Notes: generated by a model not told the origin, from the sequence alone. 64,000 bases of DNA from a bacterium (GCA_965203325.1 OZ241875.1:2016001-2080000); one strand, 5' to 3'; counted from the first letter of the stretch, positions 19,628-57,643 are shown. Numbers and translations are program-made.

Positions 19628-19954
19628 ATGAACGGGCACGCCGGAAACTGTCTGGACACGCGGGAGGCGGCCGCCCGGCTGGGCATCCCGCCGACGACGC
19701 TTGCGCGATGCCGCGTGCGCGGCGAGGGGCCGGCCTTCCGCCGATTCGGCGCCCGGGTGCGCTACCGGCCCGCAGACCTGGAAGCGTGGGCCTCGAAGCA
19801 GCGCTGGACTTCCATATCCGATGAGAGAAACGCGCGGAAGAGGAAGGAGCGCTGGAGGATCGCGCCCGGGAAACGCCGCTGTGCGAACCGGGGCGGACGC
19901 AGGAGCGCATCCTTCGCGTGTTTTCAGGCATTGGGGAATTTCCAGCGGCTGTGA
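19628..19954 (+). CDS. Excisionase-like helix-turn-helix protein
   Basis: LDTREAAARLGIPPTTLARCRVRGEGPAFRRFGARVRYRPADLEAW; paralogous to the C-terminus of the 63303 protein. Confidence 0.8.
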   Translation: MNGHAGNCLDTREAAARLGIPPTTLARCRVRGEGPAFRRFGARVRYRPADLEAWASKQRWTSISDERNARKRKERWRIAPGKRRCANRGGRRSASFACFQALGNFQRL

Positions 19955-20091
19955 AGTCTTTGTAGTTTGTTGAAGCTATTGCAGGTATTCGTTTTATTCC
20001 AGTTTTGTTCGGGATTCGCTTTCGTCAATCTGTAATCAAAACGGAAGTGGAAAAATTAGAACTCCTGAGCATACCGGCGGGTGCGTGTCGG
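19915..20091 (+). repeat. Att-like site R1 (177 bp)
   Basis: CGCGTG..TGGGG..GTTGA..GTTCGG..GTAATCAAAACG(20032)..TGTCGG. Confidence 0.8.
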
Positions 20092-20530
20092 ATCATTATG
20101 CGATTCAGATCTTAAAGTCCAGTTAGCAGAGGCATGCTTGTGTTTATGCTCCGGGACTCTAAGATTCATTCAAAGTCGTTCGAGCCAAGACAAGCCAAAT
20201 TAGAGTGTCGCGTTTCGAATTGTAGCGTCCTTCGATGTCTACGAAGGTTGTCATACGCGCCTCGGTCTAAAATTGGAACGTGCGCCGATCAATGAGCCTG
20301 TATTCCAATTTGACGGAGAAGTCCGTAGCACAACGTTATCGAAACAGTCGCTGGTCGAATTGGTGAAGAGGAGCATTCCATTCCGCTCGGTGCTGTTGAC
20401 TAGAAACGAGCGAGGCGTTCTAAAAGCCTCTGATGCACCACCCTTTCGAGGTAGTGTCGGCTATACTCTTTCGAAACTGAAGAGCCGACGATATCTGGAA
20501 GGTAAATAACCCGGTTTTTGTGAGAAGACC

Positions 20531-21739
20531 TCAGTCGGCCGAGAGATACTTGTCGAGGTCATGAATCTTGAAGCGCTCAAAGAAGCGATCAAACTCGCCA
20601 ACCTCCGCTGGAGGTTCAAGAGGCCCCGGTGCGTTGCTTCCCGGAGGAATAAGCGTCGTGCGCAGTGTCCGCAGGTTGATTACACGATCATGGTACAATC
20701 CCCAACCATAACAATCGAAGCATATCGATACGAACAAACGGTCCCCATTAACAACCATGCCTCTCACGCGGCGGCTGGAGCACTCGGATGGAACATCGTG
20801 GATGGTCTGCCACGATCCTTGCCGACGGTCCAGGAGAAGAACCAAACCTCCATCGCATAACCTTGGGCCGAGCATTTGAACCACTCGCCAGGAAGAGCGT
20901 CCAGCCTCGTCGGCGTAGATGACGCCTTCGATGTCTATTAATTCCTTGAATGTATTGAGAATCTTCAACCATCTTCGGGCCTCCCCGGGGGGAATCCGAC
21001 GCCTCGGGAGGACAAATGTAGGTCCCTCACCTTTGAGGCTAGCGCCAATGCGCAGCGCCTTCATGGCAGCCTGGAACGTCAGGTGGGCTTTTTCCCTCTC
21101 CCTCCAGCGGCATGTTCCATCAACTGTGCTCAGCAGGTCCCGAGTTCTTCCTCCGCCTTCGCCCCATGCTTCCTTGTAGAGCCGCACCGGGGTTCCGGTT
21201 GCCGGTTCTACGGACCAGACCTGAATGGCATGTTGTTGGCCGGCAGCGACATGTATCACGACTTGCTCGAAACCGGTTGCCGGATCGCGGCAGGCGAGGA
21301 CATATGACGCGTAATCCCAGCCCGTGCCAATCCTGACCGGCGAGCCGTTTTCAAATTGAATCACGCAACCACGACGAACGGGTTCCTGAGTACCCGAAAG
21401 CACGAGGTGCTCACTGCGAGCCCCTTCGCGGCCTGTGAAAAACCCTCGCACCGTACGTTTAGGATCGTAATCGCTATCAGGATAGCAAGAGATATGTCCA
21501 TTGAAGTCGCTACTCGCTCGTGCTTCACTAACAAGCAAATGAAATGAAGCTAAAACTATGACCAAAGTGATCCCATAAGCCAACCATATTTGCGATGTCC
21601 GCAACGGGAGCGTGACAGATTTAGTGATACCGGTTTTGTTCAGCAAATCCCTGAAAATACCACCAACGAAAGGAAACATATCGTCACCTCTCTTTTCCAA
21701 AAGCTTCGTGCTTATAGATGAGGTTGGCATGCCACGCAC
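20531..21739 (-). CDS. Hypothetical exported or membrane-anchored protein (start uncertain)
   Basis: Long ORF with a hydrophobic segment near the N-terminus and several Cys; no family recognised. Confidence 0.6.
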   Translation of the reverse strand: MRGMPTSSISTKLLEKRGDDMFPFVGGIFRDLLNKTGITKSVTLPLRTSQIWLAYGITLVIVLASFHLLVSEARASSDFNGHISCYPDSDYDPKRTVRGFFTGREGARSEHLVLSGTQEPVRRGCVIQFENGSPVRIGTGWDYASYVLACRDPATGFEQVVIHVAAGQQHAIQVWSVEPATGTPVRLYKEAWGEGGGRTRDLLSTVDGTCRWREREKAHLTFQAAMKALRIGASLKGEGPTFVLPRRRIPPGEARRWLKILNTFKELIDIEGVIYADEAGRSSWRVVQMLGPRLCDGGLVLLLDRRQGSWQTIHDVPSECSSRRVRGMVVNGDRLFVSICFDCYGWGLYHDRVINLRTLRTTLIPPGSNAPGPLEPPAEVGEFDRFFERFKIHDLDKYLSAD

Positions 21740-21947
21740 TTATCTATATTTTCTTGTTTGAATCATTCAGTGGCTTCATCAGTTTGTTGTCAACAACTCG
21801 CATATCATGCAAGTGGGAATGATACCAGAAAATATACGTTTCCCCGAAGGCAGTCTATCGAACTACGACACACTCGAAGGCCAGCTTTCCAATAGATCGG
21901 AGTTCGAAGACGTAGAAACAGAGACGAACTAAAAAAGAGGGTACCAG

Positions 21948-56264: not shown

Positions 56265-56561
56265 TCACCGGGTGAGCATCCGGGCCCAGACGAGGTGCTC
56301 GCCCCACAGCTGCAGCCCGCTGCCGGGGACCCTGATCCCCGTGCAGACGATGAGCTCGTCCCGCGCGGGCCGCATCTCGCGTACGGCTTTCCGCGAGGCC
56401 GTCGCTCTCTTCTTCTTGCGCCTCCCGCTCTCCCTGTCGGGCACGGGCCTGATGTCACCATCGGCGGACTTGTAGCGTTTCACTTCGTAGCGTTCGTCCG
56501 CCAGGCCTCGGCCGAACAGGTGGGTGAGGAAAGTACTCGCTTCGGGTCCGGGTTTTCGCAT
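56265..56561 (-). CDS. Hypothetical protein
   Basis: 98-aa ORF preceded by AAGGAGG. Confidence 0.45.
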   Translation of the reverse strand: MRKPGPEASTFLTHLFGRGLADERYEVKRYKSADGDIRPVPDRESGRRKKKRATASRKAVREMRPARDELIVCTGIRVPGSGLQLWGEHLVWARMLTR

Positions 56562-56750
56562 CGCGCGCCTCCTTGGGTGGGTGGATGATGGCGGCGGAGG
56601 CGAGCCACGAACGCGAGAAGACTCCCTCCCGGCTCCCCTCCGCCGCCCCCTCCCGGCCGGCCTCCGCCTCCCGGTGGCGCAGAGCCGCCGCCGGCGGGAA
56701 AGACGGCGGTCCGTTCGTTCAGGGGGGGTCTTCGTTCGGCCCGGGGCCTT

Positions 56751-57092
56751 CTACGGGAAGGGTGCGTCCGGGTCCTGGCCGAACAGCTCTTCCTCCTCGG
56801 CATCGCGGCGCCAGGCGTAGCGTCCCGTCCGGGCGGACCACTCGAAGTCCTCCTCCCGCCCGTCGGGGAGTTCATGGCGATGAAAGGCCGTCCAGTCCCC
56901 GCGGCGGAACCCCCGCCACAGGACGCACGAGAAGGCAGTGAGGAGGCACCAGAGGGCCGAACAGGCCCAGGCGGCCCCCAGGTGGCGGAGGCCGCTGCCT
57001 GCCGCGAGAGAGAGGATTGTGGCGAGGAGTGCGAGGATGGGTCCCGCCAGGACGAGGACCCGGGTGGATCGGAATGGATTCCAGTTCGTCAT
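56751..57092 (-). CDS. Hypothetical membrane protein
   Basis: MTNWNPFRSTRVLVLAGPILALLA..; GGAGG RBS. Confidence 0.55.
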   Translation of the reverse strand: MTNWNPFRSTRVLVLAGPILALLATILSLAAGSGLRHLGAAWACSALWCLLTAFSCVLWRGFRRGDWTAFHRHELPDGREEDFEWSARTGRYAWRRDAEEEELFGQDPDAPFP

Positions 57093-57466
57093 GGGTCGCG
57101 CCTCCGGTGTTGCGGGTGAGGGGATCGCGGGCGCCGCCCGGCCTCTCAGGCCCGGCTCCCGCGCCCCATCACGGCCAGGCTCGGCCTCTCGCCGGCGCGG
57201 GGCCCGGGGGAGGCGCGCGATGAACGCCCCGGCGCCCGGGCGCTGGAATGCGGATATCGAAACCCCTTGCAAGCGGGCGGTTTTTCAGTTTATTTCCGTG
57301 CGGTGCGGACTACCGTATGCACCCGGGATGAGCGAACGGGACGAAAGGAGAGACGCGCATGGACAAGAACGCCGGAAGTGGTGCGATCACGCCCCGGGCG
57401 GAGCGCCGGAGTATTGCCGCGATCAGGCTGTCCGGGCCGGCCGGAAGAGGGGGATGGCGCAATGAT

Positions 57467-57643
57467 CCGGCAGGCACGCCCCGGGATGCGCAGACGCTTG
57501 ATTCCCCTCGTTTGCGTTTTGATTGCTTGCTGCGGAAGGTGGGTTCCGGACGAGACCCGGGGGAAATGAATGCTTCTCGATGATATGAACGGGATCAGGA
57601 GATTTTACAGCCGCCGGAATCCCCCACCCTCTCTAACCACGCG
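57467..57643 (-). repeat. Att-like site R5 (177 bp, inverted relative to R1-R4)
   Basis: Reverse complement reads CGCGTGGTTAGAGA..TGGGGGATT..GCAATCAAAACG..TCAAGC..GCGCAT..TGCCGG. Confidence 0.8.

Follow-up and report, generated by a model that had tools for sequence, protein, structure and literature searches.

How does a bacterial island come to be divided, block of cargo after block of cargo, by long copies of one and the same site? We met this question in a 64,000-nucleotide stretch of a bacterial genome (GCA_965203325.1 OZ241875.1:2016001-2080000; the whole stretch is called the window, and window positions are counted from its first letter), in which two tandem integrase genes open an island and five copies of a site that we call R separate its cargo. 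A sequence-only reading of this DNA had taken the five sites for an integron-like array and had offered three models: (a) integrase-less multi-gene modules stacked by the integrase pair, (b) alternative element ends, and (c) inversions between R1-R4 and the inverted R5. The explanation that we lean towards, with modest confidence, is that the island is an integrative mobilizable element (IME) docked at a repetitive extragenic palindrome (REP), that R is a far-end attachment module, and that the internal R copies are the seams of a cassette-like accretion of integrase-less blocks.

The R copies of the window are the following:

19909..20094, + strand: R1 (alignment, profile and motif scan)
30412..30597, + strand: R2 (alignment and profile)
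36931..37116, + strand: R3 (alignment and profile)
44903..45088, + strand: R4 (alignment and profile); ~255 bp 5' of R4 are common with R3 at 81%
57464..57649, - strand: R5, between the end of the adhesin gene and the backbone (both listed below); both flanks are kept in sister islands

The positions and internal offsets given in the sequence-only reading were borne out by alignment and motif scan. R1-R5 can be aligned over ~185 bp with a mean column identity of 71%, and in a strict motif scan the CGCGTG-to-GTAATC offset is 117 bp in R1, R2, R3 and R5 and 118 bp in R4; genome-wide, the same motif is found in 17 copies with an offset of 115-118 bp. When a profile of the five sites was run against the whole 4.39-Mb genome, each R of the window scored at E 1e-43 to 1e-49, so that a chance origin of the sites is excluded. 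This profile search revealed 36 full-length copies in the genome and ~20 partial ones, the latter restricted to the last ~60 bp (the "core"). R copies cluster in at least 12 islands having a common integrase pair and backbone, and the array, first taken for a unique system, is thus one member of a genome-wide family. The longest exact match between two window copies ranges from 7 to 18 bp depending on the pair (10 bp for R2-R3); such lengths are short for RecA-type recombination, considering its minimal homology, and homologous recombination between window copies is therefore unlikely. An internal inverted repeat is conserved in R, with 76% of cells complementary and no covariation, which fits a protein site and resembles a dimer-binding site. 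The nearly invariant GTAATCAAA resembles half of a site of the integration host factor (IHF) type.

R is tied to the genes that open the island:

17197..18360, + strand: int1, a P4-like tyrosine integrase with Arm-DNA-bind_3 and Phage_integrase domains (Pfam; PHROG integrase)
18357..19526, + strand: int2, a paralogue of int1, 52% identical to it (Pfam, PHROG)
19652..19954, + strand: AlpA/excisionase-like HTH_17 gene (Pfam HTH_17; PHROG "excisionase and transcriptional regulator")

Both int1 and int2 retain the catalytic R..HxxR..H..Y residues, and the pair stays together in every strong match (12 genomes). The best plasmid or phage relatives of these integrases are ~45% identical; the two plasmid/phage loci inspected (H3 and H5) have a single such integrase and no tandem pair, H3 having in addition a short recombinase fragment ~1.7 kb off. 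The HTH_17 gene stops at 19954, its last ~13 codons lying inside R1. A profile scan for co-occurrence of R with the integrase pair, the check proposed in the sequence-only reading, found the two together, as R is present in 12 of 20 relatives and all 12 also match the int-module query; among the eight relatives without R, six gave no int-module match and two a weak one (E ~1e-6). These kin are not independent, and the co-occurrence is to be read as consistency, not as a test. The spacing, the structure nulls given below and this co-occurrence uphold the view that R is a length-constrained, DNA-level site tied to the tandem integrases. With regard to the genes themselves, the int1 ATG at 17197 is preceded by a GGAGG ribosome site, and the int2 start codon overlaps the int1 stop as ATGA (18357-18360), which suggests translational coupling.

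We asked where the island begins and ends. Its left end has two parts:

16965..17001, + strand: REP hairpin GGATTCCGGCTTTCGCCGGAATG with tail GACGAACAAA; the tail, at 16992-17001, is the left 10-bp direct repeat and the attL crossover region
17002..17196, + strand: integrase-side attachment (att) arm, P'-like, holding an R-like core GTAATCAAA..TCAAAC..GCGTAT

This core corresponds to the last 60 bp of R, which the sequence-only reading had correctly seen to recur inverted before the first integrase: its place is 17118-17179 (minus strand), with 18 bp left between it and the ATG of int1, and the same arrangement precedes every integrase pair examined. Homology among five 94%-identical int modules starts at the REP hairpin, followed by GACGARCAAA, while homology at the far end starts ~110 bp outside the far-end core. 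The 10-mer GACGARCAAA stands at both homology boundaries in four of four islands with a far end of the type we call beta, and its A/G variant is matched between the two ends (A/A in the window and in the 1825-1861k island, G/G in the 1957-1999k and 4227-4272k islands; k, thousands in genome coordinates). Of the 27 REP sites with CCGGAATGACGARCAAA as their last letters that were counted in the genome, five are followed by the island end CATATAATTCAA; the 22 empty ones continue mostly ACCGCA.., the same letters as the right flanks of the islands. As the 10-mer is present at both ends and the empty REP sites continue like the right flanks, the target of the island is the tail of a REP element. 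The far-end arm and right direct repeat of the window island fall at window-equivalent 64389-64555, just past the window. Model (b), the alternative element ends, is left unsupported by these results, the true ends being the 10-bp direct repeats at the REP element. Moreover, two features by which IMEs are recognized were found: the bounding direct repeats reconstruct the target in four of four beta-type islands, and integrase and excisionase-like genes adjoin the island end (17197-19954).

Other lineages have other crossover repeats: the 3830k island carries CTGAAAAATA, the 2553k island TATTTATCGAA, and three more show imperfect AATTnCTGAAAAAT-like repeats, recognized by eye; in the 453-473k island a crossover repeat was looked for and not found. 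No synteny was found for the chromosomal flanks of the island in two related genomes. A transfer RNA (tRNA) target was rejected, as tRNA-Pro (12832-12908) is 4 kb outside the island with metabolic genes between. The REP or BIME-like (bacterial interspersed mosaic element) repeat, with hairpin CATTCCGGCGAAAGCCGGAATG, has ~155 half-copies in the genome, often as inverted doublets.

In ten of the ten islands in which both were detected, an R-like core lies 110-135 bp inside each end, the two in direct orientation. In attP of lambda or P4, arms of 100-200 bp with arm-type and bending-protein sites stand on either side of a crossover core, and by analogy the cores near both island ends would be laid out as the arm-type sites of such an attP. 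The island resembles these phages in its integrases with an N-terminal arm-binding domain, its excisionase-like HTH protein and the HU/IHF-like gene of its sister copies; it differs in having two integrases and in re-using the arm module many times internally.

The relation of R to the far end can be followed in other genomes. In G016, G018 and G020 (another family), the R model matched only at positions 30-184, and in the two G020 loci inspected the R-like stretch is the far end of elements of 5 kb and 15 kb with an integrase pair. The 5-kb element, L036, is bounded by a 14-bp direct repeat AAGTGGTCTGAAAA that spans the stop codon of a host open reading frame (ORF), and R position 30 is 15 nt from this repeat. 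The reverse complement of the repeat, TTTTCAGACCACTT, resembles the 5' box of R, GTTTTCAGGCAGTGG; likewise, the beta far end reads TTCGTC-TT-AGAGAC and the other R variant CGCGTG-TTT-AGAGAC. From these comparisons we infer that R is a complete far-end attachment module. It would comprise a 5' box of crossover type (CGCGTG-KTT-TCAG/AGAG), a length-constrained arm of ~115 bp and a ~60-bp cluster of putative binding boxes, the cluster that recurs in the arm beside int1; the box match is short and carries no statistic.

Synteny at the edges of R was studied in 73 R contexts with 1.5-kb flanks, taken from this genome (G000) and five related genomes and compared all against all. The left flank and R are common at 95-96% and diverge at R position 152-182 in three pairs (G000 1853k/G012, G000 1114k/G010 and G007/G005), R and the downstream flank are common from R position 4 in two (G012/G003 and G007/G005), and the left flank alone is common, up to R position 9, in G000 672k/G005. 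In addition, one adhesin 3' end is joined in G000 to either A-type or B-type copies of R, homology stopping at position 12-50, and G007 and G003 have R and >900 bp downstream in common with different sequence upstream of the box. As a separate observation, convergent R pairs 240-350 bp apart occur at G007:C1:307040-307615 and 338385-339066 and at G003:C2:1121953-1122527, and two species share one of these pairs at ~98% identity. Such pairs have the appearance of R-bounded units with almost nothing inside, or of places where the far end of an island meets an internal R.

Between the R copies of the window lies its cargo:

20095..30411: block 1, an FGE-sulfatase-like gene, two ankyrin-repeat proteins and unknowns (Pfam)
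30598..36930: block 2, an ankyrin protein, a VWA protein and an LpxR-like protein (Pfam)
37117..44902: block 3, a TPR protein and an 865-aa ankyrin/peptidoglycan-binding protein (Pfam)
45089..51000: block 4, an IS256-family transposase (45315-46726) and a SIR2_2 protein (47350-49461) (Pfam)

The block sizes first reported (10.3, 6.3, 7.8 and 12.4 kb, the last reaching to R5) are correct, and Pfam found no tyrosine recombinase in any block. The cargo includes eukaryote-like and defence-type genes: it is rich in ankyrin-repeat proteins, with four genes, and also has the SIR2_2 protein (24009-25905, 31295-32635, 41731-44328 and 47350-49461).

We also looked at populations. Metagenomes were compared as assembled contigs only (Logan), on 17301-37300, in runs X1, X17, X2 and X15, of which X15 is the probable source. 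Block 1 was present in the contigs of X1, X17 and X2, which belong to three other sponge metagenome studies, at ~90-99% identity. Depth over 30641-36643, in block 2, was 0 to 0.8 in those runs versus 14.5 to 15.9 in X15; block 2 is therefore absent from three of the four runs compared. One contig of X1 matches up to 30441 (R2 position 24) and continues with 1251 nt of unlike sequence. Taken with the breaks in the R contexts, these depths bear out the expectation that module content varies at R edges, and this holds between islands, between species and between sponge populations. Ends of X15 unitigs at 19885 and 36936 coincide with R starts and were given no weight, as there are many other breaks.

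To the right of the cargo, two further parts complete the island within the window:

51000..57463, - strand: conserved backbone with a weak NikA-like match, YAcAr/SLOG, DUF4326, SSB and a zinc-ribbon protein, ~8-12 genome copies (copy-number profile, Pfam/PHROG)
57751..63938, - strand: "Type II" unit with a 1435-aa Calx-beta/cadherin-like surface protein (the adhesin), int3 and a second HTH_17 gene (Pfam, BLAST)
62279-63214, + strand: int3, a Cre-like recombinase, in the Type II unit (Pfam)
63303-63938: second HTH_17 gene, in the Type II unit

A BLAST search of the window against the genome showed that its multi-copy parts are 16.9-19.9 kb (integrase pair and HTH gene) and 51.0-64.5 kb (backbone and Type II unit), with unique cargo of lower GC between them. 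A marker map located the same parts in at least 12 loci of 12-95 kb; ten islands that were sized are 20-60 kb each and ~405 kb together. In sister islands an HU/IHF-like gene and a gene for a 966-aa TrwC (MobF) relaxase come directly after int2; TrwC is found in seven sister loci and a coupling protein in two, and VirB4 was not found in the genome. Since sister copies carry TrwC and no VirB4 was found, the family is, judged by its genes, probably an IME. In the window copy, Pfam and a relaxase search found no relaxase; this copy appears to have lost it and would rely on sister copies for mobilization. In one X-type sister island (genome 3833325-3837568), int2 is separated from the backbone by the HU/IHF-like gene and a divergent TrwC. 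The trwC-backbone spacer of the X-type island, 284 bp long and the counterpart of the 250 bp after R5 in the window, is likely the actual origin of transfer (oriT). The Type II units, which show inverted matches to one another, are 88-95% identical across islands (nine sister units) where the integrase pairs are only ~74% identical, and as the identity of the unit exceeds that of the integrase pair, the unit has been exchanged between island lineages.

The orientation of R follows a rule. In every island of the marker map, R copies near the far end point as the far end does, and the additional R copies that lie close to the integrase genes (window, 453-473k, 1825-1861k and 2553-2588k) are oriented like these genes. 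The backbone is co-directional with the integrases and close to them in four X-type islands, one G007 island and two G010/G012 loci, and it is inverted and abuts R beside the adhesin in the window and four other islands. Flipping the interior of the X layout thus gives the layout of the window, and the flipped block has R1 at one end and R5 at the other. Model (c) can therefore be retained in part: an R1-R4 x R5 inversion is supported as a past event, and there is no sign of present flipping, as no orientation polymorphism was found within a lineage nor in the contigs.

Taken together, R is linked to the integrases, is homologous to the far-end arms and has synteny breaks at its edges, and for these reasons model (a) is favoured; with blocks that lack a recombinase and a content that differs between populations, stacking of integrase-less modules is the best fit of the three. 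Mechanistically, the arm-binding domains of the integrases, the AlpA-like protein and the HU/IHF-like protein would bind the conserved boxes of R, and the 115-118-bp spacing would set the geometry that bridges the arm boxes to the 5' box. Strand exchange would occur at the common CGCGTG box, so that any two R copies could recombine. Recombination between direct copies would release a circle of one R and one block, and re-entry of this circle at another R would stack blocks; opposed copies would invert the segment between them, and an R1 x R5 event would explain the flipped interior. The R set would be closed under R x R recombination, and left flanks would for this reason change exactly at the box. 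The two integrases may split the REP and R reactions between them or act as a heteromer. A stronger form of this proposal, in which the integrase pair and R make up an integron-like platform for multi-gene cassettes, one specificity docking at REP and the other acting on the CGCGTG box of R to capture, delete and invert modules of 5-12 kb with genes for eukaryote-like ankyrin proteins, defence and surface proteins, is conceivable and in our opinion rather doubtful.

Accretion of this sort has precedents. Tandem accretion of att-bounded modules without an integrase, called cis-mobilizable elements (CIMEs), is a known way of island growth with complex excision patterns possible, as outlined in parts of PMC5704250; the sequence-only reading, which knew of no described system with this layout, had overstated its case in this respect. 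The CIMEs found with ICESt1 and ICESt3 of Streptococcus thermophilus are likewise integrase-less modules stacked beside an element that supplies the integrase (same source, in part). As in CIMEs, the modules of the island are recombinase-free and strain-variable (blocks 1-4; block 2 absent as described). The joints differ: those of CIME arrays repeat the core of the chromosomal target in one direction, whereas the island has ~185-bp arm modules with a CGCGTG box, placed inside it in two opposed sets.

Several observations weigh against accretion through R. The CGCGTG box of R differs from the island's own crossover repeat GACGARCAAA, and R is therefore not the simple product of integration into the island's own att; direct internal copies of the island's own att core, expected of a CIME, were not found, the internal boxes being CGCGTG and R1-R4 being inverted relative to the far end. 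This orientation is not produced by intermolecular site-specific insertion alone. The integrase-side arm that classical accretion predicts beside internal R copies was not found there. In many cases an R copy has diverged more (70-80%) than its own flanks (93-99%), and some of the breaks at the 3' end of R come from insertions of sequences like miniature inverted-repeat transposable elements (MITEs) or insertion sequences (ISs), not to R recombination. In G009, with 12 R matches, integrase matches at the DNA level are only fragmentary, as they are in the R-bearing G016. Cargo sharing was searched for with blocks 1-2 in 23 genomes of the genus and with the window blocks within the genome, and only domain- or repeat-level matches were found; no cargo block is common to islands or species, and no block was met on the move. 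Precise excision of block 2 is at most a conjecture. The circles or current inversions at R that the sequence-only reading had thought of were not seen either, as no circle, deletion or inversion joint at R was present among the 15 joints listed of 47 in the contigs.

Part of these observations would suit an account in which R copies are inert fossils, that is, far-end arms of tandem or nested whole islands that have lost their integrase ends and no longer recombine. The lack of recombination joints in the contigs and of a cargo block common to islands speaks for it, as do the ~70% identity of the copies, the lost relaxase of the window island and many decayed-looking loci, for example clusters of R without integrases at 654-672k and 1113-1130k. 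Nevertheless, in dozens of copies the 5' box is the exact point where the left flank changes, which random decay is unlikely to repeat; the 115-118 bp spacing is kept at 30% divergence and therefore points to selection on the site; and block 2 differs where block 1 is ~90-99% identical, implying at least one recent change. We consider that R as a fossil only is unlikely. R might also be a regulatory module, an operator or promoter bound by the AlpA-like HTH protein, the integrases or the HU-like protein and copied beside cargo so as to tie its expression to the state of the island. The same boxes indeed stand 18-80 bp upstream of the int1 start in every island, three of the five window copies (R1, R3 and R4) have a gene of the same orientation ending at their start or inside it, while such a gene ends 108-274 bp short of R5 and R2, R5 lies between genes at a conserved place preceding the backbone operon, and the internal inverted repeat looks like a dimer site. 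Yet a scan limited to the sigma-70 consensus gave no promoter for R1, for R5 or for the leader of int1, the genes downstream of R1 run in the wrong direction, and both the homology to far-end arms and the synteny breaks are left unexplained, which makes a purely regulatory role improbable.

Sister islands have genes for TrwC, for a coupling protein and for an HU/IHF-like protein, which raises the thought that R might be an oriT-like site for the TrwC relaxase, with modules nicked, mobilised or recombined from oriT to oriT. TrwC of R388 catalyses recombination between two oriT copies and integration (PMC3264647, in the part cited), which offers a precedent; downstream modules are joined exactly after TGTCGG, and R1 shares with the nic region of R388 a GGTGCGT followed by GTC. 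Against this, GGTGCGT is found in R1 only, and the R profile did not match the R388 oriT at E up to 1000. The last 38 nt fold at -3.48 kcal/mol versus -3.57 for shuffled sequences (70 of 73 contexts, those with a TGTCG-like end), so that a nic-side hairpin is not conserved, and the best candidate helix pairs in only 55% of cells. R is also present in islands without a relaxase, and the trwC-backbone spacer holds no convincing R, its one match (E 0.021, 2.7 bits, positions 148-181) not being counted as a copy. We regard an oriT function of R as very unlikely. The discrete ~190-bp unit with sharp edges on both sides, its many copies and the richness of the genome in other short mobile repeats would be in line with a selfish MITE-like repeat that spreads in islands without any relation to module joining. 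For this, too, we see only a slim chance: inverted repeats are lacking at the termini of R (the search gave 0 pairs for R1 and R2, and the pairs of R4 and R5 are internal), no target duplication is visible in the flanks, copies occur only alongside the integrase family and obey a strict orientation rule within islands, and R is homologous to island ends. That conserved length, boxes and intergenic position reflect a small structured RNA or a riboswitch-like leader is hardly credible, as Rfam gave no match at the gathering score in the window or at E up to 1 in seven R loci, RNAalifold on 25 copies yielded a fold of only -0.96 kcal/mol for one strand and no pair at all for the other, and three hand-set helices showed no convincing covariation beyond shuffles. 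Two of the outcomes that the sequence-only reading had named as damaging to it, a known non-coding RNA or a MITE, were thus not encountered (Rfam, RNAalifold, inverted-repeat search), and its statement that R is not an attC hairpin, a tRNA end or an IS inverted repeat agrees with folding, the tRNA position and the inverted-repeat search.

Returning to the REP-docked element with R as its far-end module, it is instructive to set it beside other systems that collect genes. Integrons have a recombinase gene beside a cargo array, repeated sites conserved more in layout than in sequence, and mostly unique cargo. The island is like them in that a recombinase gene adjoins a site-separated array of diverse cargo, and unlike them in its P4-like integrases with an arm-binding domain, its hairpin-free sites, its blocks of 6-12 kb and the lack of a Pc/attI layout. 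IntI is not known to carry an Arm-DNA-bind_3 domain. Neither an attC hairpin nor an IntI-type integrase, the two marks of an integron, was found in the island. In the shufflon of R64, the tyrosine recombinase Rci inverts segments between opposed sfx repeats of ~19 bp and thereby swaps protein C-termini; for the island, in contrast, a single past inversion is inferred, of a block longer than 30 kb, and alternative coding ends play no part in it. The tripartite ICE3 of Mesorhizobium, an integrative and conjugative element, uses several tyrosine recombinases and att types in ordered recombinations that rearrange the element (PMC5882170, as far as cited); its three pairs of integrase and recombination directionality factor have att pairs of their own in three chromosome regions, whereas the island has adjacent paralogues and one site family. 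At ssrA of Dehalococcoides, repeated site-specific insertion gives rows of repeat-bounded islands (PMC3146451, in part). There, the target is a single-copy tmRNA gene with short joints at its 3' end, unlike the multi-copy REP targeted here.

As the REP target is multi-copy, the island family could multiply to at least 12 loci. In the literature on tandem integrases, paired recombinases, REP-targeted integrases and sponge-symbiont islands, we did not find the family described; a tandem-integrase, REP-targeted, multi-copy family with re-used arm modules thus appears undescribed, its principle being close to known accretion. If our reading holds, this is a way of island building between classical att accretion and integrons, in which the arm module is a generic seam served by the integrase pair, and REP targeting, which would explain the at least 12 copies in a 4.4-Mb genome, is a new case of recombinases aimed at REP. 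Sequencing runs containing the window stretch are mostly labelled as sponge metagenomes, and the host genome is apparently that of a sponge symbiont. The cargo (ankyrin proteins, adhesin, SIR2-like) is of kinds thought to shape the relations of such symbionts with sponges, and the islands may be a main route of trade in host-interaction genes among these uncultured bacteria. Were the integron-like platform true, sponge symbionts would possess a self-multiplying and shuffling gene-capture system.

Other short elements are found at R, and two features of block 3 belong here:

37117..37250, + strand: hairpin element H, arms CGTTCG..GGGGTGAT / ATCACCCC..CGAACG, directly after R3
37325..38077, + strand: group II intron without an ORF, ~750 nt; domains D1-D4 at 37325-37544 and D5-D6 at 38002-38077 (Rfam RF02005, 154.7 bits)

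Nine H elements were counted genome-wide, none of them farther than 400 bp from an R core; they are nine of 20 regular-expression matches, the other 11 being without arms. Besides the window, copies of ~130 bp are at genome 703270, 712034, 1014867, 1031415, 1031546, 1263963, 3858956 and 3871378. Three H copies have a 9-bp duplication at their flanks, made up of the last bases of R, for example TTCTGTCGG. H belongs to the MITE/IS-like family mentioned above, whose members start with GTAAGCGTTCGG..GCCGTGATGG and insert right after TGTCGG, and in G012 longer relatives with the same start are attached to the 3' end of R, at 97-99% identity. From its sequence, the H family looks like a MITE/IS family that targets the 3' end of R.

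With regard to the 5' box, a degenerate search for boxes only was noisy, with 92 matches versus 33 in a reversed-genome control. At genome 3131379-3131570, a remnant of an adhesin 3' end is followed by an R 5' box CGCCCGTTTTCAGAC.. without an arm (box at 3131543); this may be an R that has been truncated or a partner site consisting of the box alone.

An ARAGORN call of tRNA-Ala(CGC) at 58666-58737 (minus strand) lies within the ORF of the 1435-aa surface protein and has no Rfam support; it is probably a false positive in GC-rich coding sequence. For the group II intron of the window, RF00029 gave 33.9 bits, under the cut-off. The two group II introns detected in the genome, this one (37325-38077) and one at genome 2534927-2536882, are both near the TGTCGG end of an R or core, the latter at ~20 nt from it.

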